A stretch of DNA of 18,446 bases from IMG/VR virus record IMGVR_UViG_2526164613_000015, one strand, 5' to 3'. The DNA is from a virus (Duplodnaviria > Heunggongvirae > Uroviricota > Caudoviricetes). The notes under the pieces were generated by a model. The model was given only the letters and a program-made list of their open reading frames with translations. It was not told the origin of the DNA and ran no database searches. Position 1 is the first letter of the stretch; each line of letters opens with the position of its first letter. Below are positions 1-15,188 of the stretch, one piece after another. Both the position numbers and the translations under genes were made by a program.

Positions 1-423
1 ATACGCATCAGTAACCTCTTTTACCCGAGCACGCCGGTTGCAAAGGCGTGATCAAGAAAACGAAAAATTAAATCAACCTGGGAACCATGCTTTTCTTCGA
101 ACGCCAGCGGATCCGCATGAAGCTCGTTGTGATGCTCCCGACACAGCGGTAGCGTGAAAATATCGTGGGATTTTGTTCCCATTCCGCCCTGACCATGACC
201 AATCAGATGATGAGGATCGTCCGCTGGCTACCACAACACGAACACGGCTGTGTCTTTACCCAGCGTGTGTATTTCTCATTTACCCAGCGGCGACGTTTAG
301 GTCGTTTCATGAAGGATTCCGGAGACTCCGGATCAACGGCAATGCTGACCACCGTCTTTTCCTGTGGTGGGTTCTGTTGCTGGTGGGCGTGAGGCAGCGG
401 CGCAAGATTTTTTGTGCGCTGTT

Positions 424-1068
424 TCAGTATGCTGGTGGCGGTCTGCTCTCCCGGTACGATGTCGCTTTCGCGGTACACCGAGCAGATTTTTCCGCTGGTA
501 ATCCCAGCGAGCGACGTAATACCGCTTCCGGTAGCGCGTCCGCCAGCTGATTGCGGACCGCCCACCAGGATAATTCAGCCAGAGATAATTCACGCTCCTG
601 CGTACCGCTTATTGCGTGACCGATGACGTCAATCATCCATGCTGACAGGTTTTGATGAGCAAGTTGCTCGAGTGATTCGGATGTCTGGTCACGCAGCTGG
701 TTGTCGCAGAGCCAGCACAACACCATTGCGCCGGTACCATAACGGTGAATAACGGTTTCACTGTGATGATAGTCACCATGAGGCCACTGGCAGGATTTGA
801 CATGACGCAACAGCCAGTCAGACAGTGCACCAGCGCCACCAACAGCACGAATCACACGCTCATTGCTGAAAAACGGCAGTAATGATTTATCCTCCACCAG
901 CGGCTGGCGAACAGTGGGAACCGCTCCGGATGGCAGCGCCCGCATGTTTTTCGGTTCCGGCTCAACCAGCACCCTGCTGTGATGAAAAACCGGCAGTGAT
1001 TCGCGCCCGGGCTTAAGGACCACCAGCCCGAGTTCCGGTACCAGAACCGGTCGAAGTAATACCCGCAC
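424..1068 (-). CDS. hypothetical prophage protein (214 aa, GTG start); possibly a fragment of a frameshifted larger gene
   Basis: ORF with E. coli-like codon usage; start overlaps the stop of the upstream ORF 1070..1348 in another frame; further overlapping minus-strand ORFs at 203..593 suggest frame disruption. No family recognised. Confidence 0.4.
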   Translation of the reverse strand: MRVLLRPVLVPELGLVVLKPGRESLPVFHHSRVLVEPEPKNMRALPSGAVPTVRQPLVEDKSLLPFFSNERVIRAVGGAGALSDWLLRHVKSCQWPHGDYHHSETVIHRYGTGAMVLCWLCDNQLRDQTSESLEQLAHQNLSAWMIDVIGHAISGTQERELSLAELSWWAVRNQLADALPEAVLRRSLGLPAEKSARCTAKATSYRESRPPPAY

Positions 1069-1069
1069 G

Positions 1070-1348
1070 TTACCTCCAGATGCGTTGCTGGAATGTGCGG
1101 GACGGACGCGGTGGGCGCTCGGAGTACGGCAGCCTGACGTAGATTATCCAGTGACGATAATCGAGGCTGAGGGCTTTCCTAAACTCATACCCACGTCTGC
1201 GGTAGTTCTGAATCAGCCATTCGGCCTGTTCTTCAGTGCATGGGGCGTGCCGGAACCAGTCAGATTTGAATGCATGAGAACGCCGCCCGTGCCTGCTGGC
1301 AAAGACGGCTGAATTATCAGAATTGTGTAGTCTGGAATTTTGCGCCAT
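1070..1348 (-). CDS. hypothetical protein (92 aa), possibly N-terminal piece of a disrupted gene continuing in 424..1068
   Basis: ORF ends 1 nt before the GTG start of 424..1068; no recognisable motifs. Confidence 0.3.
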   Translation of the reverse strand: MAQNSRLHNSDNSAVFASRHGRRSHAFKSDWFRHAPCTEEQAEWLIQNYRRRGYEFRKALSLDYRHWIIYVRLPYSERPPRPSRTFQQRIWR

Positions 1349-1417
1349 CGGCTTTCTCCGGTGGCACAGTGTTACTCAACAGGGGTTCAGCCCTGCGCTG
1401 AATTGTAGATGAATTCA

Positions 1418-1675
1418 CTAATCTTCAAAAGCAGAAAAACCAGCCTTAATCCCAGCTTCTTTCAGAGACGGCAACGATGTGACAAATTCATTTTCACGCA
1501 AAATAAAACCATCCGTCACAAGTCCATCCACAAAGTAAATTAACGCAGCTCCACTCTTCCTATGTAGAGACTGTAAACATTTAATACGGCAGTGGCTGAC
1601 AATAGCGCCATTCTCAACGCGCACAGTATAGAGGCCATCTTCACTAAAAATTTCACGTAATTCTTCGATTTTCAT
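1418..1675 (-). CDS. small hypothetical prophage protein (85 aa); occupies the position that rem holds next to hokD in E. coli K-12 Qin
   Basis: ATG at 1675..1673 preceded by GGAAGGA Shine-Dalgarno 8 nt upstream; ORF-track version (1418..1723) likely over-extended. Synteny argument only. Confidence 0.5.
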   Translation of the reverse strand: MKIEELREIFSEDGLYTVRVENGAIVSHCRIKCLQSLHRKSGAALIYFVDGLVTDGFILRENEFVTSLPSLKEAGIKAGFSAFED

Positions 1676-1800
1676 CAACAGAATCCTTCCAGATAAATAG
1701 CACTCCCCCTGTTCGGGGTCCATCCCTCTTCTCCCTGCGCGCTACTTAAGTATTTTTGATTCTATTCTGGCACCGTCCAAAACTTCAAACACGTTGAAAA

Positions 1801-1827
1801 TAAAAACAAAAAACCCGCCGAAGCGGG
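1801..1827 (-). terminator. rho-independent terminator downstream of the HTH-ImmA gene
   Basis: Minus strand reads CCCGC-TTCG-GCGGG followed by TTTTTTGTTTTT; hairpin 1814..1827. Same hairpin sequence recurs at 3649..3662. Confidence 0.6.
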
Positions 1828-1832
1828 TATAC

Positions 1833-2939
1833 TCAAACAATCTGGAAAATATTTCTTGGATTTGTAATAGGTCTGTTGATGGAGAACAACTCACGAATTA
1901 AATCTTGGCTCAAGCCAGTTTTCATAAGAATTCTTAGCCAGGTTGCATCATCCAGCATTTCAATCGCCTCGGCCAGCATGCCGGGTTCTTCAGGGCGCAA
2001 AAGTTCATCACCAGGTTCAACTCTCGTATACCCTCTGGAATTAAGATGCATATAGCCAGTTCTTGCCTGTTCCTGGGTCAATAAGCCTAATGCGCTGGCT
2101 CGATAAATACACATTTTAAGGCTGATTTTCCATCTAAGTTTAAATTCAACCAGAGCATTCCAGTCGAATTGCTTACCTCGTATTCGTGGAAATTCTTTAA
2201 TGAAAGATAACCTGGGAACTAATAAGGCGCTCGAAAAGTGATCGGCTTGTGATTCCGTAAGTTTATCACCTGTCGTTATGCCCTCATGCATTACTAAATG
2301 CCCTAATTCATGACCTAAATCAGAGCGAAATCTACATATGCTTTTTTTAACATTGTTCCTGATGATAACAGGCCTGTTATTGTGAACAGTAAAAGCATCA
2401 ACACGATCATCGACTCCCGTAACATGCGCAACGATTACCCCTAAACTCTCCGCCAATTTAACCATTGATGATATAGGGCCAAGACCTAAATTCCAGGCAC
2501 GGCGACAATCTTCTGCCACTCGCTCAATATCATTCGGAGTAAGTAATTCAGCCCCTGGGTGCTCCGGTATGTTAACGTCAGGAAATTCGATTTCACCTTC
2601 AACAGCAGAAATTATAATATTAAGAATCTCAGCCCTGGCCAATACACTATTAGTCAGCGTTTGAGTCCTGGACTTCTTACTCCGAAAATGGCAGACATCA
2701 CTTTCCAGAGCGTATTTTCGTTCAGTAAAAAGAAAACTGGACTTAATCATAAGCGCTGAAGATATTAACTCAAGACATTGCTCCGATGGCCTGCACCCCT
2801 TCTCCAGTTTGCTAACAAATTGCTTTGTCTTGCCAATTTTTTCGGCTAACTCTTCACAAGAAAGCCCAACAGCCATTCTCGCTAGTTTGAGCTTATCACC
2901 CCGATACTCAGTGAAGTTATTCACCTGATGTTCCATCAC
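1833..2939 (-). CDS. fused XRE-type HTH / ImmA-IrrE family zinc metallopeptidase (COG2856-like), 368 aa
   Basis: N-terminal HTH (LARMAVGLSCEELAEKIGKTKQFVSKLEKG); HEXXH zinc-binding motif in SDLGHELGHLVMHEG; start is GTG at 2939 or ATG at 2936; overlaps upstream ORF by about 20 nt. Confidence 0.8.
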   Translation of the reverse strand: MMEHQVNNFTEYRGDKLKLARMAVGLSCEELAEKIGKTKQFVSKLEKGCRPSEQCLELISSALMIKSSFLFTERKYALESDVCHFRSKKSRTQTLTNSVLARAEILNIIISAVEGEIEFPDVNIPEHPGAELLTPNDIERVAEDCRRAWNLGLGPISSMVKLAESLGVIVAHVTGVDDRVDAFTVHNNRPVIIRNNVKKSICRFRSDLGHELGHLVMHEGITTGDKLTESQADHFSSALLVPRLSFIKEFPRIRGKQFDWNALVEFKLRWKISLKMCIYRASALGLLTQEQARTGYMHLNSRGYTRVEPGDELLRPEEPGMLAEAIEMLDDATWLRILMKTGLSQDLIRELFSINRPITNPRNIFQIV

Positions 2940-3567
2940 TGCTCACATCCAAATCTTTATCCTTCGTACGCCGACGAAGAGGCACCTTATTAATCTCCGC
3001 TTCGTCAGGGAGTGTGTTATAATCAAGAGGCATAAGCGGCATCGATGCTGTAGATTGATGAGAAACTATACTAATCTGAGCACCATAAGTATTAAATCCA
3101 ACAAGAGCTACCTCCCAACGAGGCAGTGTGGACTCTAATTCACCATCGCCCTCTTCGGATAAAAAAGGCTCAGCTATGACTCGCCATGTAATATCTTGCT
3201 CAGCCTCAACATCACCAAACAATGAGAGCTGCTCATACTCTACTTTATTTCGACGCAGACGATGTTTCTTTTTGGGGTTATTAATGCAATCTTTGGTAAA
3301 TTGTAGCGGAACTTTATTTAAAGCAACTACATAGTCCAACCCCTTGGAAATCATCTCAAGGCCAGGAATTGCATCTTCATTTTGAATAAGATGATTTCTG
3401 ACCCAATCATAAGCCCTTACACCTTCAGACCAGTTGCTGTCTAATGCGTGCTTATGATAGTACAGCTGCTCAAGTACGTTAGCGATCTCCGCCAACAAGT
3501 GGCGAACATAGTTTTCAGCAAGATAAGGTTGAAATTCCCAACAAGGAGCTAACTGATTTTCATTCAT
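2917..3567 (-). CDS. hypothetical acidic protein (216 aa), first gene of a two-gene operon with the HTH-ImmA peptidase
   Basis: ATG at 3567; no TM segments; acidic stretches (GDVEAEQD, SEEGDGELES); stop overlaps start of 1833..2939; preceded by promoter-like sequence with perfect TTGACA. Confidence 0.6.
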   Translation of the reverse strand: MNENQLAPCWEFQPYLAENYVRHLLAEIANVLEQLYYHKHALDSNWSEGVRAYDWVRNHLIQNEDAIPGLEMISKGLDYVVALNKVPLQFTKDCINNPKKKHRLRRNKVEYEQLSLFGDVEAEQDITWRVIAEPFLSEEGDGELESTLPRWEVALVGFNTYGAQISIVSHQSTASMPLMPLDYNTLPDEAEINKVPLRRRTKDKDLDVSSDGTSGE

Positions 3568-3732: not shown

Positions 3733-3888
3733 TTACTCCTCAGGTTCGTAAGCTGTGAAGACAGCGACCTCCGTCTGGCCGGTTCGGATTCGTACCTCGC
3801 AGAGGTCTTTCCTCGTTACCAGTGCCGTCACTATGACGGTTAAACAGATGACGATCAGGGCGATTAACATCGCCTTTTGCTGCTTCAT
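3733..3888 (-). CDS. hokD: Hok/Gef family type I toxin (51 aa), HokD/RelF-like
   Basis: Manual translation of minus strand gives MKQQKAMLIALIVICLTVIVTALVTRKDLCEVRIRTGQTEVAVFTAYEPEE, matching HokD/RelF as recalled; single TM helix plus conserved C-terminal Cys region. Below the 60-aa ORF-track cutoff. Confidence 0.85.
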   Translation of the reverse strand: MKQQKAMLIALIVICLTVIVTALVTRKDLCEVRIRTGQTEVAVFTAYEPEE

Positions 3889-4099
3889 AGCCTGCTTCTC
3901 CTTGACCTTTTGGTCCGTAAGAGGCTAATCTCTATGTGTCGCATAGATATGGCCTCAGATTAATGTTAAGCGTCTTGCAGGACGCGTAATGTTAACTGGG
4001 GCTTTTCTCTATCTGCCTTTTGGTGTTCATGCCTGAGGCAGATAGCCTCAAGCACCCGCAGCAATTCTACTTAACTCCCGTCACCTCGCCAATATAAAA

Positions 4100-4259: not shown

Positions 4260-5291
4260 CTACCAATCAATAAAATCAGTGATGTTATCCAACCTAATTA
4301 CAGTAACTTCCCGTCTCAACTGGTTTTTCCAATATATCTCACGAGCGTTTTGTTCACCAGCACCGCTCCACTCAATTACTCTTAAAGGCTTAGAGGTTAG
4401 GTAAGGTCGAATAAGCAGGTTAAGGTGAATATCGAGACCAGAGTAACCAAACAATATTATTTCTTCTGATTCAAATAATGCAAACTGCAAATAATCCCAG
4501 TACGTAGAAAGAACATTAGATGCTGCTATAACTGACGGTTTTCTTTTTATATGAGTTAACACTATATGCTCACTAGGTTCATCTATGTCAAGAGTAAGTT
4601 GTGAGCGTGAAAGTTTTAAAACATTTTCATGCTGATTAATAAATAGTGGTGAACCATGCAAGTGCAAATAATAACCAAACCTACGATTGTATTTCCGTTC
4701 GAGCGCTGCAGAGGAAAATCCGTGGCTTAGCATCCCATCAACTAAAACCCCATCATACCCGTTGAATATATCATTATCTATGAATGAATTGTATAATAAT
4801 TTGTCATAGTTTAATGTCGCGATATGTGAGTGTGTGTTCTTTACAAACTCCACAAGCGCATTTTCGAATCTTTGTGGCAAACCTTTATCGTAATTATGCA
4901 ACCTGGTTGCAACTTTGTGAATATAAGTGGCGGTAATTTTGGGGAAGTTTAGTCCATCTTCAGTAAGCCAATGCACGTTCCCCTCTCCAATTTGAGCAAG
5001 AGCTTTACAATATGTGACAGCCTGGTGAAGGGTATCCAACTCATGTTCTCCTTCTGGTGGACCTTGCCGCTGAAGACAACGCTCGATAAGTTGCTTGTGG
5101 ATATCTTTTAAAAAATTGGGGCGATGCCAAATTTCTTCCAACGCTCTGTCTAAGGAGAAGTGAGCAGGATCTAAAGCCATACCGAGACCGTTGCCGAATA
5201 TTATTAATTTTCTTGCCATATAGGGGGACTCATATTGGAATAACGCTGGATAGCGTAGCGCGATACGCTTAAGTTTAGGATTAATAGACAT
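4260..5291 (-). CDS. SIR2-like (sirtuin-fold, SIR2_2/DUF4020-type) putative NADase, 343 aa, stand-alone
   Basis: Ordered motifs LIIFGNGLGMA (Gly-rich loop), ATLNYDKLL, YLHLHGS, ILFGYSGLD as in defence-associated SIR2 domains; gene and 370-bp upstream region are markedly AT-rich. Confidence 0.8.
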   Translation of the reverse strand: MSINPKLKRIALRYPALFQYESPYMARKLIIFGNGLGMALDPAHFSLDRALEEIWHRPNFLKDIHKQLIERCLQRQGPPEGEHELDTLHQAVTYCKALAQIGEGNVHWLTEDGLNFPKITATYIHKVATRLHNYDKGLPQRFENALVEFVKNTHSHIATLNYDKLLYNSFIDNDIFNGYDGVLVDGMLSHGFSSAALERKYNRRFGYYLHLHGSPLFINQHENVLKLSRSQLTLDIDEPSEHIVLTHIKRKPSVIAASNVLSTYWDYLQFALFESEEIILFGYSGLDIHLNLLIRPYLTSKPLRVIEWSGAGEQNAREIYWKNQLRREVTVIRLDNITDFIDW

Positions 5292-5659: not shown

Positions 5660-6067
5660 CTAGGCATATCCCTGATAGAACGCCAATACACGCTGCATAA
5701 CTTCGCTCTTCCGGCACTCGCGACAGATTATGTTCATACGCCTGTCGTAGCGGCGTATTTCTCCGTCGGGTAATGTCCAGATAAGGCCCGGATCAACCAC
5801 AACAGGTTTCTTCACCTTTGCCCTCGAGAGTTTTTTGCGGGCGTTTTGCCAGTCCTTACGAGCCTGTTCTGACGGGAACAACCCATAGCCAGAGTGATAT
5901 ACATCACCACTGGCAACCAGCTCTCTGGCAAGAATGCTCATCAGATATCTTGTCGCACCTGTTTTAGCTTCCAGTTGCCGTAGCGTCTCACGACCGCTCT
6001 GGCGCACGAGTTCCACCACCTGCCCTTTAATTTTTTCCCGCTCTTCTTGTGTAAAAACTTTTGCCAC
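5660..6067 (-). CDS. hypothetical prophage protein (135 aa), basic C-terminus, downstream of replication initiator
   Basis: GTG start with GGGGG Shine-Dalgarno-like element 4-5 nt upstream; 40 nt after the initiator gene stop; no family recognised. Confidence 0.5.
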   Translation of the reverse strand: MAKVFTQEEREKIKGQVVELVRQSGRETLRQLEAKTGATRYLMSILARELVASGDVYHSGYGLFPSEQARKDWQNARKKLSRAKVKKPVVVDPGLIWTLPDGEIRRYDRRMNIICRECRKSEVMQRVLAFYQGYA

Positions 6068-6107
6068 AAGTCCCCCTTAAAATTACCTCATGACCTGAAA
6101 TCAACAC

Positions 6108-7073
6108 TTATCCCCTGAAACCAGGCGGAATTTCTGTATCCGGTTCAGAAATATGATTCACACAACGCTGTATAGACGAACGCCCCAGACGGATGACCAG
6201 TTCATCCCATTTTTCACGAAGCTTTGACGGGCTCATGATGTTTTTTACCCAGAATGGATCTCGCTGTACCCGACCAAACATTTCGCAAATTTGTCTGTGG
6301 CTTCTGCCATCCAGCATCCGCATTGTGCGCACGTCATTGGCCCAGGCAGTCCAGTTAGGCTCTTTTGGTCGCATGATCTCGCCATCATCACTGGCTGCCT
6401 GTTCGTAGAGACCCACGATCCGCCCCCAGATCCACTGCGCACACGCCAAATCCTCCCTGCTACCCCACTGGCGTTTTTTCGCACTAAACACAACCGCGTC
6501 GGAGTTCCGGGTTAAAAAATCCTGTTCAGTCGTCTGCGGGTCCGGTTGCGAAGCTTCCGGACGAAAAGTGTTTTTATTCTCTGTAGTAATCTCTGTTGTA
6601 TTCTCTGTAAGATCATCAGGCCATTTTGACCCGATGACATTGGGTCGTTTTGAACCAATGGAGCGTTTCATTTTGACCTCTTCCATCGTGTCATTTTGAC
6701 CTGATGGAGCGGCGCATTTTGAACCGATGGATTCGCTCAATTTGCCACCATCTAAAAGCTCGCTCCCATAGTTGATCGTGTAGAAATTGGTCATATCGCG
6801 CTTTGATTTATTGAGCTTTTCACAACGCAAAAGCCCCAGCGTTTTCAGACTTGCAAACGCGCGCTTTAACGTTGACTCTGACCAGAATGGGAACTGTTCC
6901 AGCCATTGTTCCGTTGTGTTGTAAATCCAGCGAACACCATCACATTCCATGCCGGAATTGGTATCTCTCAACCAGTAATGCAACTGCTGCAACACAATGG
7001 CTTCATTTAAGCCAATCTTCATCGCAAGCTGTGTGTTTATAACCAGTGGGCGTTCAGCAAAAAGAAGGCTCAT
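6108..7073 (-). CDS. phage replication initiator (lambda O-like replisome organiser) with DnaT-like C-terminal domain
   Basis: N-terminal HTH-like region; central repeat-encoded linker (IGSK repeats); C-terminus ...SEPDTEIPPGFRG resembles the E. coli DnaT C-terminus as recalled. ATG at 7073 preferred over the TTG at 7127. Confidence 0.7.
   Translation of the reverse strand: MSLLFAERPLVINTQLAMKIGLNEAIVLQQLHYWLRDTNSGMECDGVRWIYNTTEQWLEQFPFWSESTLKRAFASLKTLGLLRCEKLNKSKRDMTNFYTINYGSELLDGGKLSESIGSKCAAPSGQNDTMEEVKMKRSIGSKRPNVIGSKWPDDLTENTTEITTENKNTFRPEASQPDPQTTEQDFLTRNSDAVVFSAKKRQWGSREDLACAQWIWGRIVGLYEQAASDDGEIMRPKEPNWTAWANDVRTMRMLDGRSHRQICEMFGRVQRDPFWVKNIMSPSKLREKWDELVIRLGRSSIQRCVNHISEPDTEIPPGFRG
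6581..6752. repeat. replication-origin-like iteron array inside the initiator gene
   Basis: Five to six direct repeats with core ATTTTGA(C/A)C at exact 23-bp spacing (TTTTGA at 6625, 6648, 6671, 6694, 6717, degenerate 6740), preceded by three 12-bp CTCTGT-containing repeats (6581-6615). Confidence 0.65.
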
Positions 7074-9559: not shown

Positions 9560-9612
9560 TTTCTGGTGACATTTGGCGGTATCAGTTTTACTCCGTGACT
9601 GCTCTGCCGCCC
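9560..9612 (+). ncRNA. dicF: DicF-like small RNA
   Basis: TTTCTGGTGACATTTGGCGGTATCAGTTTTACTCCGTGACTGCTCTGCCGCCC followed by TTTTT matches K-12 DicF as recalled with about one mismatch; lies immediately upstream of the dicB-like gene. Confidence 0.65.
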
Positions 9613-9786
9613 TTTTTAAAGTGAATTTTGTGATGCGGTGAATGCGGCTAAGCGCACGCGGAACAGTTAAAACCAAAAACAGTGTTATGGGTGGATTCTC
9701 TGTATCCGGCGTTAATTGTTAACTGGTTAACGTCACCTGGAGGCACCAGGCACTGCATCACAAAATTCATTGTTGAGGACGCGATA

Positions 9787-9975
9787 ATGGAAACGTTATT
9801 ACCAAACGTTAATACGTCTGAAGGTTGTTTTGATATTGGTGTTCTGCTCAGTAATAAAGCGTTTACTGAGGATGCCATTAATATGCGGAAATATGAGCCT
9901 TATCTGCTCAATGATAATTCCATACTTTCCCGAATTGCTCTTCTTGAACTTGGTATTTTCGGAGAACAGCAGTGA
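9787..9975 (+). CDS. dicB: DicB-like cell-division inhibitor (62 aa)
   Basis: METLLPNVNTSEGCFDIGVLLSNKAFTEDAINMRK... closely resembles the DicB N-terminus as recalled; GAGGA Shine-Dalgarno 7 nt upstream of the ATG. Confidence 0.75.
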   Translation: METLLPNVNTSEGCFDIGVLLSNKAFTEDAINMRKYEPYLLNDNSILSRIALLELGIFGEQQ

Positions 9976-12728: not shown

Positions 12729-12932
12729 ATGAGCAGCATATTTTTAACCGAAAATGAATTGCAAACGTTAACGGGCTGCAAATATGCAAGCCACCAGCGC
12801 AACTGGTTAATAAAAAATGGGCTTCCGTTCTATACCAATCGTAGTGGAAAACCGATCGTCAGTCGGGAACTGTTTACCTGTATAAAAACTTTACCACCAC
12901 GTGAGGCTGAACCTGATTTCGGTGCGATCTAA
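12729..12932 (+). CDS. excisionase-like small protein (67 aa) translationally coupled to the integrase
   Basis: ATG start; stop TAA overlaps the integrase ATG (TAATG); immediately upstream of int as in lambdoid xis-int modules. Confidence 0.55.
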   Translation: MSSIFLTENELQTLTGCKYASHQRNWLIKNGLPFYTNRSGKPIVSRELFTCIKTLPPREAEPDFGAI

Positions 12933-13957
12933 TGGGAAGACGAAGGAAAAATCCCGAACACGAAAAATTACCGCCAAAGGTATACCCCAATAAATATAGT
13001 TATGTATGGAAACCGACATCCAGAGAATCTGTAACCTTAACTGCAATCGAGGATGGTTTAGCCGCATTATGGAAAAAGTATGAAGAAACGGTTAACCATC
13101 GCGATCGCGCAATGACATTTGGGCGTTTGTGGGAAAAATTTCTCGCCAGCGCCTATTACAGCGAGCTTAGTCCTAGAACTCAAAAAGATTATCTGCAACA
13201 TCAAAAAAAGTTGCTGGCCGTATTCGGTAAGGTGCTGGCCGATTCTGTAAAACCAGAGCACATCAGACGATACATGGACAAAAGAGGCGAGCAGAGTAAA
13301 ACGCAGGCAAACCATGAAAAAAGCAGTATGTCGCGCGTTTATAGTTGGGGGTATGAACGAGGGTATGTAAAGGCTAATCCTTGTGCCGGTGTAAGTAAAT
13401 TCAAGGCAAAAAACCGAGAGCGCTATGTGACTGACAAAGAATACCAGGCCGTATTAAGCGTGGCTCCTGTGCCTGTTTTTATCGCGATGGAAATTGCATA
13501 TCTGTGCGCAGCAAGGATTTCCGATGTGTTATCTCTGAAATGGGAACAGATCGGAAACGATGGGATCTTTATCCAGCAAGGTAAAACAGGAAAGAAACAG
13601 ATAAAAGCCTGGAGCCCCCGCCTGCAATCAGTTATAGAAAAAGCCAAACAACTCCCCAAGTCGGCCTATGTAATCAGCAATCAGTACGGCAACCGTTACA
13701 TGTATAAAGGATTTAATGAAATGTGGGTTGAGGCAAGAAATTTAGCAGGACAGATATCTGGGATCGCCACCGATTTTACGTTCCATGACCTTAAAGCCAA
13801 GGGGATATCAGATTACGAAGGTAGTAGCCGGGATAAACAACTTTTCTCTGGTCACAAGACCGAAGGACAGGTATTAATCTATGACAGGAAAGTGAAGATC
13901 TCACCTACACTGGATGTACCTTTACCCCAGAATATTCCAACAAAATATTCCAAGTAA
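12932..13957 (+). CDS. int: tyrosine recombinase / phage integrase (341 aa)
   Basis: C-terminal catalytic region FTFHDLKAKGISDY...SGHK...QVLIYDRK consistent with the His/Tyr box of tyrosine recombinases; 3' end lies about 50 nt from the tRNA-derived att core. Confidence 0.85.
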   Translation: MGRRRKNPEHEKLPPKVYPNKYSYVWKPTSRESVTLTAIEDGLAALWKKYEETVNHRDRAMTFGRLWEKFLASAYYSELSPRTQKDYLQHQKKLLAVFGKVLADSVKPEHIRRYMDKRGEQSKTQANHEKSSMSRVYSWGYERGYVKANPCAGVSKFKAKNRERYVTDKEYQAVLSVAPVPVFIAMEIAYLCAARISDVLSLKWEQIGNDGIFIQQGKTGKKQIKAWSPRLQSVIEKAKQLPKSAYVISNQYGNRYMYKGFNEMWVEARNLAGQISGIATDFTFHDLKAKGISDYEGSSRDKQLFSGHKTEGQVLIYDRKVKISPTLDVPLPQNIPTKYSK

Positions 13958-14009
13958 TTCCAAGTGTGATTTTTATCACTGACTTGATGGCGTGTAAGTG
14001 ATTGAATTT

Positions 14010-14071
14010 TGGCGGAGAGAGGGGGATTTGAACCCCCGGTGGAGTTGCCCCCACTCCGGTTTTCGAGACCG
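14010..14071 (-). other. 3'-terminal fragment (about 62 nt) of a tRNA-Ser(CGA)-like gene; attachment-site core / integration junction
   Basis: Reverse complement reads CGGTCTCGAAAACCGG...CGGGGGTTCAAATCCCCCTCTCTCCGCCA (anticodon loop with CGA, T-arm, acceptor 3' strand); 5' half of the tRNA is absent. Confidence 0.7.
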
Positions 14072-14465
14072 ATGATACAGAGTCGAAAAATCAAAGAGTT
14101 AAAAATTTTTCTTGGAATAAATGTCTTAAAATCGTACACGAAAAATCAATAAATTACATAACATTTAAAGAAGAATATTCCAAGCCATCTTGAGGCCACC
14201 ACCTGTTTTCAGGTGTCATTCAGACGTGATTTACCCCAGATTGGGAAAGCACGCTTTTTTTCTCAGCTTATTCCGTTTTGCCTGTGTGTTGAATAATTCC
14301 ACTGAAGTTATATAAAATCGGTAACGGCTGGAAATCATCCAATACTAGCACTATCGAAAGTTCACCAACCAACCGCAGTACGTTCTTGCATACGAGGTGC
14401 CGTGTTTTACATGCCGTACCGAGAATTAATTTCATTTTACGAAAAGTTAACCCGCCATTGCTATC

Positions 14466-15107
14466 TTAATTTTTTAAAACGAAGTTACCTCTGTCAGGGT
14501 CAAAAGCACAATTATCTCTTCCTACAATCATTGAAACTGCGATTGACTCCCTGCTCAAAGGATGAGCCGCCCTTGTTTTAACAAGATGTATTAATGCCAT
14601 TTTATCATACAACATACAAACATTTGAATTCATTGAATTCCTCATAAATACCCCATCTTCTGGTTCACATAATGTAACAGGGCATGTTCGTAAGCTCTCT
14701 GGCACTTGCAATTGTGCATGCTCCACATTAAATGCACATACTTCAATTTTATCTAACAACTCCTCTAACTGGTAGTTAGAAAGCAAATCCATATTTTCGA
14801 GCATCTCAATTTCACGCAGTACTGTAACTTCACGGCTTGTCAAACTACCATGATTAAGTGTACGTTCAATATGTTCTATATATTGAAGGCCAATCTGGAT
14901 ATTATCATTCGATAAACCATCCTGGTTAAGACTTCCCATAAAATATCCATTTACCTGCATAGGTCGTATTGACACCATCAACTCACCCAGTCTTATTTGA
15001 GCTTCTCCACGAATAGTCTGATTACGTATCTCAGACAAGGTTTCTTGAGGAATGTCAGACAAAAAACTAACCCCAGGTAAAATATAAGGCGTTAAATCTA
15101 CAGGCAT
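14466..15107 (-). CDS. nleG: NleG family type III secreted effector (U-box E3 ubiquitin ligase), 213 aa
   Basis: MP N-terminus; conserved C-terminal U-box region CPVTL...GVFMRNS...HPLSRESI...FD...GNFV shared with three downstream paralogs; AT-rich. Confidence 0.8.
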   Translation of the reverse strand: MPVDLTPYILPGVSFLSDIPQETLSEIRNQTIRGEAQIRLGELMVSIRPMQVNGYFMGSLNQDGLSNDNIQIGLQYIEHIERTLNHGSLTSREVTVLREIEMLENMDLLSNYQLEELLDKIEVCAFNVEHAQLQVPESLRTCPVTLCEPEDGVFMRNSMNSNVCMLYDKMALIHLVKTRAAHPLSRESIAVSMIVGRDNCAFDPDRGNFVLKN

Positions 15108-15188
15108 TCCTCTCCCTCCATTTTAATAACTTAATTTTGCTTTAGTAAAAAATAAAAGTACATAAAACTATATTTATATCATTAATTA

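Follow-up and report, generated by a model that had tools for sequence, protein, structure and literature searches.

The truncated tRNA gene that lies between an integrase gene and an nleG effector locus in this DNA is, we argue, the middle att site of a tandem array of two serU-specific lambda-like prophages. We put the probability of this reading at about 93%. The window is the whole stretch of DNA that was analysed, 18,446 nt long. The prophage on the integrase side of the junction is called B, and the one on the nleG side is called A. The fragment at 14010-14071 is a recombination site and no tRNA gene. It places the border between two virulence prophages (nleG in A, tccP/espJ in B) to the nucleotide. 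Together with the outer ends of the array, it identifies three sites where either prophage, or both, could be excised. The features of the window that enter the argument are as follows.

12729..12932, plus strand: putative excisionase/directionality factor of prophage B, 67 aa, DUF4224 (Pfam PF13986, E=3.8e-15)
12932..13957, plus strand: integrase of prophage B, 341 aa, intact (Pfam PF00589, phmmer)
13918..14009, no strand: P' arm (integrase-proximal) of prophage B, with repeats overlapping the last int codons
14010..14071, minus strand: att core with the phage-type allele G48/C59, a non-functional tRNA (sequence comparison, ARAGORN, folding)
14053..14070, minus strand: 18-nt common segment GGTCTCGAAAACCGGAGT, tRNA positions 30-47, found in all att copies
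14072..14311, no strand: P arm (cargo-side) of prophage A, with motif copies at 14111-14122 and 14173-14184
14313..14406, plus strand: ecpE-ykgJ-like block, 95 nt, 89.5% identical to the chromosomal ecpE-ykgJ intergenic region
14466..17338, minus strand: exchangeable effector locus of prophage A (Pfam PF06416 and DEC5B annotation)
14466-15107, 15189-15818, 15891-16478 and 16763-17338, minus strand: the four NleG-family type III effector genes of prophage A

Read on the minus strand, window positions 14010-14071 are CGGTCTCGAAAACCGGAGTGGGGGCAACTCCACCGGGGGTTCAAATCCCCCTCTCTCCGCCA, 62 nt that begin within the 5' strand of the anticodon stem and end in CCA. They are identical at 62/62 positions to positions 29-90 of the intact 90-nt tRNA-Ser(CGA) of the same genome; the 5' 28 nt of the tRNA are missing. 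The serU gene of K-12 is identical at 60/62 positions. The two differences, A48G and U59C, are pairing partners of each other in the stem of the variable arm, and the phage-type and K-12 alleles have the same cloverleaf and minimum-energy fold. The substitutions are therefore compensatory. The common segment makes up most of the anticodon stem and the loop, and the anticodon CGA is at 14063-14065. What remains is not a working tRNA. ARAGORN calls none in the window, and Rfam gives no tRNA model match there, just sub-threshold partial matches. The 62-nt piece has no significant fold by itself (z = -0.49) and falls short of a full cloverleaf, with its acceptor stem and D arm. Among the sub-threshold Rfam matches are a tmRNA and a plastid UTR. 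Another RNA was considered on this account and rejected, as these matches are the truncated tRNA seen through its overlap in the T arm and acceptor.

The interval 13958-14071 consists of a 52-nt spacer and the 62-nt tRNA fragment. The int stop codon is 52 nt from the 3' end of the tRNA, and the two genes are convergent. Beyond the missing 5' half there is AT-rich phage arm DNA and then the minus-strand nleG genes. An earlier note, made from the sequence alone, had described much of this: the 3' 62 nt of a minus-strand tRNA-Ser(CGA), compensatory changes in the variable arm relative to serU, an integrase 3' end facing the tRNA 3' end, a missing 5' half toward the nleG side and no intact tRNA at the spot. 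All of it is borne out by the comparisons above.

The surroundings of the window decide what the fragment is. Over its full 18,446 nt the window is 99.978% identical to the E. coli O55:H7 DEC5B chromosome (NZ_CP038389.1, reverse strand), with 2 mismatches and 2 gaps. We examined 127 kb of DEC5B around it, and annotation and a pattern search give this order.

DEC5B: mtfA, intact serU, prophage A, 62-nt core, prophage B, third core, yodB

In the pattern search the tRNA 3' end turns up three times in this region and no more, at 2063673, 2111075 and 2161088, all in the same orientation. From one core to the next it is 47,402 bp (A, 47.4 kb) and 50,013 bp (B, 50.0 kb). ARAGORN finds one intact tRNA-Ser there, the 90-nt tRNA-Ser(CGA) gene at 2063645-2063734, which adjoins mtfA. 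The two prophages have the same orientation, and each is complete with its own integrase-side and cargo-side arms. About 66% of their length is common to both, at 75-99% identity. The empty site is preserved in K-12 MG1655, where yodB, serU and mtfA are contiguous and the flanks match the outer flanks of the array. A four-way alignment with K-12 resolves the three sites.

attL: K-12 left flank and the 5' 28 nt of serU, phage-type core, P' arm
Middle site: P arm of A, phage-type core, P' arm of B
attR: P arm, native-type core (A48/U59), K-12 right flank

The tRNA at attL matches K-12 in its 5' flank and its 5' 28 nt and has the phage allele in its variable arm. The only serU gene of DEC5B is now a host-phage chimera. 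Direct repeats bound the elements, a tRNA has been reconstituted, a tyrosine integrase gene is adjacent and an unoccupied attB exists elsewhere, which is what a tRNA att site should look like. The chromosomal outer flanks and the P-core-P' junction in the middle are those of a tandem array. This pattern of att sites is the one that classical Campbell integration would leave. The earlier note had suspected a junction of two adjacent integrated elements, as opposed to a simple prophage-chromosome border, and that suspicion was right: the site reads P(A)-core-P'(B), both its flanks are phage DNA, and host DNA appears at the outer flanks. The two sequence checks that it had proposed both bear it out. 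The intact tRNA-Ser gene is found 47.4 kb off, beside mtfA, where the nleG element has its other end; a further core copy at an element boundary, the third of the array, is 50.0 kb away next to yodB; and the unoccupied mtfA-serU-yodB locus of K-12 aligns with the outer flanks.

The arms on either side of the core can be recognised by short repeats. The P' arm of B has three direct (A)ATATTCCAA / AATTCCAAG copies at 13932-13940, 13945-13953 and 13956-13964. Exact ATATTCCAA occurs in the 18.4-kb window at 13932, 13945 and 14175 only, in each case at most 130 nt from the core, and related copies are at 13956 and, inverted, at 14112. The repeats cluster around the core alone. The P arm of A has an inverted copy, CTTGGAATAAAT, at 14111-14122 and GAATATTCCAAG at 14173-14184. 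The P' arm of A has the same three repeats as that of B, and the P arm of B has the same two motifs as that of A at the same spacing, with the remaining sequence diverged. We consider the (A)ATATTCCAA / AATTCCAAG motifs candidate arm-type sites, which integrase would presumably bind. The core and the P arm of A are also found in the phages mEp332, ev099 and PhiR70_1 at 94-95% identity, and the records vB_EcoS-689R5 and vB_EcoM-606R7 match int and core. Two of these were tried as attP references and set aside. No integrase is annotated in mEp332 in the ~2.3 kb from the core to the record end, on the int side of the window, and it was dropped for this reason. The record of vB_EcoS-689R5 includes host mtfA, so it is a prophage cut-out and was rejected as an independent attP.

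A second O55:H7 strain, 2013C-4465 (NZ_CP015241.1), has the same two prophages in the reversed order.

2013C-4465: yodB, native-type core, prophage A, phage-type core, prophage B, serU, mtfA

Its prophage A has the same four NleG proteins and the same frameshifted int. Its prophage B starts with espJ/tccP, and the int end adjoins intact serU. The four prophage ends compare with those of DEC5B as follows.

A effector end: 100% identity over 3,387 nt
A int end: 99.97% over 9.3 kb
B int end: 99.98% over 4.5 kb
B cargo end: 99.8% over 2.2 kb

The same arms have been re-assorted between DEC5B and 2013C-4465 exactly at the core. A full-length reciprocal junction, P(B)-core-P'(A), is seen solely in 2013C-4465. 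We compared nine junctions from DEC5B, 2013C-4465, DEC5A, O157:H16 98-3133 and 2013C-3264, six of them from the first two strains. The flank switches at the 5' edge of GGTCTCGAAAACCGGAGT in all nine, across all five genomes, and the variable-arm allele (position 48, window 14052) goes with the 3' flank every time. With a common break point and an allele tied to the 3' flank, the exchange must fall within tRNA positions 29-47. The alignments put the crossover in or near the anticodon loop; they define an interval of 18-19 nt, from which we infer the cleavage positions. A crossover at the anticodon stem-loop agrees with many tRNA-integrating phages. Work by Williams on the sublocation of integrases within tRNA genes (2002, in Nucleic Acids Res) reportedly describes att sites with a crossover in the anticodon loop. 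In such sites the phage copy covers the tRNA from its anticodon stem-loop onward to the 3' end, the integrase gene lies by the 3' end and the tRNA is restored. The same is true here, except that we have an 18-19-nt interval at positions 29-47 rather than mapped cleavage positions.

The reversed order suggests a recent integrase-mediated rearrangement of apparently defective prophages. Two routes could lead to it. The whole of A+B could be excised by attL x attR and re-enter through the other attP-like junction, or one prophage could be excised and re-integrated at the far boundary of the other. By either route the junction in the window would be a substrate or a product of integrase. The reversal in 2013C-4465 amounts to a natural experiment, and it bears on how effector repertoires are reshuffled in the O55:H7/O157:H7 lineage. 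The tail-fibre region of A in 2013C-4465 differs from that in DEC5B and is 96.7% identical to the one of B in DEC5B. This suggests an additional homologous exchange between the tail-fibre regions of the two prophages.

Other explanations of the fragment must be weighed against this one. Where a truncated tRNA copy stands at a prophage end, it is usually attR with host DNA beside it, so one could take the fragment for a simple prophage-chromosome border, or for a tRNA pseudogene that remained when a second serU-like gene lost its 5' half by deletion. There is phage DNA on both flanks, though, with no host genes for ~47 kb and ~50 kb. The truncation point is the exact flank switch of attL, attR and the empty site, and it is used again in four other genomes. 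Against this, a border or a pseudogene has next to no probability, the smallest of any we assign. The case is hardly better for one phage having entered a serU-like attB that the other carried in its genome, which we regard as highly improbable. Copies of attB next to effector loci do exist in STEC (PMC8112680), and a block like attB-in-PP_2 is found 240 nt from the core. Such an insertion should be enclosed by DNA of the outer prophage, but the outer flanks are chromosomal, the serU 5' half beside A and yodB beside B. A and B are each complete from int to tail and cargo. The core is also contiguous with the integrase arm, which makes it an attP-derived copy and no captured attB. Very improbable as well, if slightly less so, is an origin by homologous recombination or inversion between similar prophages, or by an error of assembly. 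The ~66% that A and B have in common at 75-99% identity would favour such recombination, inter-prophage inversions are common in the O55:H7 lineage, and the serU prophage of DEC5A is mosaic. Homologous exchange would nevertheless not break exactly at the tRNA core with both arms intact, nor would it give the reciprocal junction of 2013C-4465. An assembly artefact does not explain why the same junction type recurs in independent assemblies of other lineages.

A more serious doubt attaches to the reversed order. A and B could have been acquired independently, in a different sequence in each strain. A second phage can enter attL or attR of a resident prophage, and A-type effector-locus phages are present at serU in other lineages (O157:H16). 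This would require the same variants to enter twice, since the four ends are 99.8-100% identical and the frameshifted int is the same. We think independent acquisition unlikely, while giving it real weight. Even so it would proceed by the same site-specific mechanism and would leave the identity of the fragment unchanged.

If the fragment is the middle att site, as we argue, its history can be pictured in a few steps. Each phage would bring a copy of the 3' 62 nt of serU beside its integrase gene, and integrase would exchange strands in or next to the anticodon loop. At attL the phage copy would complete the host tRNA gene, and at attR the displaced host 3' end would remain. With two phages in series, the P arm of A would be joined to the P' arm of B via the core as an attP-like hybrid. 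This middle site would let A, B or A+B excise via the intact integrase of B and its DUF4224 protein. Because a sister strain has the reversed order, the site would have been a substrate or product of integrase in the recent history of the lineage. Which integrase acted, and its present-day activity, we infer. Neither A nor B is likely to be a viable phage: the int of A is frameshifted, and in B a tail gene contains an IS and the tail-tip gene is broken by an internal stop. Their movement would need help in trans. The core alleles give the same pattern for either arrival order of A and B. DEC5A was considered as a collapse product that might reveal this order and was rejected, since its single serU prophage (extracted locus 15749-49001) is a mosaic. 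At its int end that prophage has 93% identity with prophage A of DEC5B; from ~11 kb onward, in the late region, it is 99.2-99.4% identical to prophage B.

The integrase of B is, by homology, a predicted tyrosine recombinase of the lambda-Int family. It scores 44.1 bits with Pfam PF00589 against a cut-off of 27.1, and phmmer matches it to the lambda Int structure 1Z1B at E=6.7e-11. The aligned catalytic residues are R195, K218, H285, K288, H308 and Y317. Lys288 aligns with the second catalytic Arg of lambda, R311, and the others with lambda R212, K235, H308, H333 and Y342. At window 13784-13807 (Int residues 285-291) the sequence reads FHDLKAKG where lambda Int has FHELRSLS. This motif is identical in every serU-type integrase of the loci examined (85-100% nucleotide identity). 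The protein is WP_000533608.1, the same that adjoins intact serU in 2013C-4465. The DUF4224 protein is a putative excisionase, a role assigned solely from its position directly upstream of int.

From the integrase onward B has DUF4224, exonuclease, dicB, DicF and hokD/sok, and farther on Q, lysis, head and tail genes. Its cargo end has tail fibres, a partial tccP and espJ, followed by the core and yodB. Several RNA matches lie in its early region: the DicF sRNA (window 9561-9612, 77 bits), an STnc100-like match below threshold (9610-9819, 34.7 bits) and the sok antitoxin RNA with hokD (3886-4057, 107.5 bits). These account for the impression in the earlier note that the element is Qin-like. 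The description suits the gene content of the early region (DicF, dicB, hokD/sok) and fails for the site, which is serU and not ydfJ, and for the tccP/espJ cargo at the far end. Qin of K-12 has DicF, dicB, ydfA-D-like genes, hokD/sok and exonuclease VIII-type early genes in common with prophage B. Qin is cryptic and sits at ydfJ, whereas B is full-length at serU with a different integrase specificity and effector cargo. The end of Qin next to ydfJ has an ecpE-ykgJ-like copy in a K-12-like genome, as does the end of prophage A. Between hokD and the replication genes of B there is a SIR2-family gene (window 4260-5219, minus strand; ORF 4260-5291). DEC5A has another gene in that place. The SIR2-family gene may be anti-phage defence cargo.

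Prophage A begins with its frameshifted gene for a serU-type tyrosine integrase, followed by DUF4224, exonuclease and dicB, and then by Q, lysis, terminase, head, tail and tail-fibre genes. After the tail fibres come IS2 and the four nleG genes. The earlier note had left it open whether the nleG side was a prophage or an island; it is a complete lambda-like prophage with an integrase gene of its own, and the island can be dropped. The three NleG ORFs that were tested match Pfam PF06416 at E=1e-43 to 1e-47. The IS2 runs from 17549 to the window end at 18446 and separates the fourth nleG gene from the tail-fibre genes. Both 2013C-4465 and O157:H16 98-3133 lack it in an nleG locus that is identical in other respects.

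The ecpE-ykgJ-like block follows the P arm at 240 nt from the core and precedes the first nleG gene. It fits 'attB-in-PP_2' as described by Nakamura et al. 2021 (PMC8112680), a match made by description and not by sequence. They presented attB-in-PP_2 as a potential docking site for phages, an attB copy linked to effector loci. The likeness to attB-in-PP is that a 95-nt block derived from ecpE-ykgJ lies at a prophage end by effector genes. The difference is that the block is unoccupied in the window and takes no part in the junction, which is of the classical tandem type. It was suspected to be part of ttcA from the uspF/ttcC context in DEC5A; this was rejected, since it matches the ecpE-ykgJ region. 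PGAP annotates a 55-aa 'capsid protein' ORF across the block (window 14268-14435, minus strand). The ORF has no Pfam support and is probably spurious.

Arrays of this kind are well documented. Tandem prophages that share one att sequence are the usual reading of such junctions (PMC8112680), and O121:H19 has four tandem prophage sites (PMC8767318). As in lambda polylysogens and in the STEC tandems at ompW and ydfJ, the prophages here have the same orientation, P-core-P' between them and attL and attR outermost. The site is familiar too: prophages integrate at serU in O145:H28 and O121:H19, and Stx phages insert there in LEE-negative STEC. The nearest relative is Sp14/CP-933U of O157:H7, which occupies the same site as the array, between yodB and tRNA-Ser(CGA) (PMC8190617), and like B has tccP(espFU) and espJ as cargo at the yodB end. 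The xis-int module of O157:H7 is homologous to that of B at ~91%, and its attR has the P(B) arm and core at 97%. Sp14 is alone at serU in O157:H7 genomes (PMC8190617) and is ~43.7 kb long, whereas here the nleG prophage lies between B and serU. Circular Sp14 DNA was detected by PCR after mitomycin C in O157 Sakai, and its att core was determined (PMC2669165). The circles were rare, and the Sp14 excisionase of O157 Sakai was judged probably non-functional (PMC2669165). The paper on closed O55:H7 genomes reports an occupied zinT-mtfA site for O55:H7 and O157, with no mention of a tandem pair or a reversed order. Our analysis thus concerns a feature of a known kind and leaves the understanding of the mechanism unchanged. 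We found no published report of the serU A+B pair or of its reversed order, and this specific pair and its permutation appear to be unreported in the literature searched.

The core is nearly universal and the junction is rare. Among 5,426 complete E. coli genomes, 5,414 have the 62-nt core, at 6,991 places in total, and the median genome has one. For 1,185 records the top copy reaches 99% identity or more, which for 62 nt means the phage-type allele. The xis-int module is present in 1,104 genomes, and in O157:H7 its nucleotide identity is ~91%. Both counts imply that about one genome in five has a phage of this family at serU. The junction type of int end, core and P arm of A is found in 10 of the 5,426. 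We inspected two of the ten, O157:H16 98-3133 (with the same four NleG proteins) and 2013C-3264 (with different cargo). In each, tandem prophages meet at an integrase-to-tail junction. Many O157:H7 genomes have three places that match the serU core query, where Sp14 alone would give two.

The effector end of A has travelled farther than the array. In DEC5A (NZ_CP038394.1) the same nleG locus and arm, 99.5% identical, are at a prophage end next to ttcC/uspF. Many O157, O26, O111 and O145 genomes match the same span of the window (by sequence match alone), and in these and in DEC5A the homology ends at 14054. What DEC5A retains of the serU core is CTACGGATTTCGAGACC, with 2 mismatches from the anticodon stem-loop (window 14054-14071), followed by a second, more diverged ecpE-ykgJ-like copy (extracted locus 5912-6350). 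Such a half-site might have been left behind by integrase acting in an exchange at a secondary site, or it might be an arm belonging to a related phage family with ecpE-ykgJ as its site. We tentatively propose, at somewhat under even odds, a joint reading in which the defective pair still moves as substrates of integrase, and the nleG locus, P arm and attB-in-PP_2-like block form a portable end-module. If this is true, a 97-kb A+B unit re-entered serU, or one member of the pair passed the other. The break at 14054 would then reflect integrase-mediated, not homologous, exchange between phages of different site specificity.

It must be added that the ~210 nt adjoining ttcC in DEC5A have no yecE- or ompW-like match. 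They are present in only 1,011 of the 5,426 genomes and are therefore no core chromosomal sequence. We read them as a putative Rac-type phage arm, because the matches include BL21 and TTTTGCCCC-type repeats are present.
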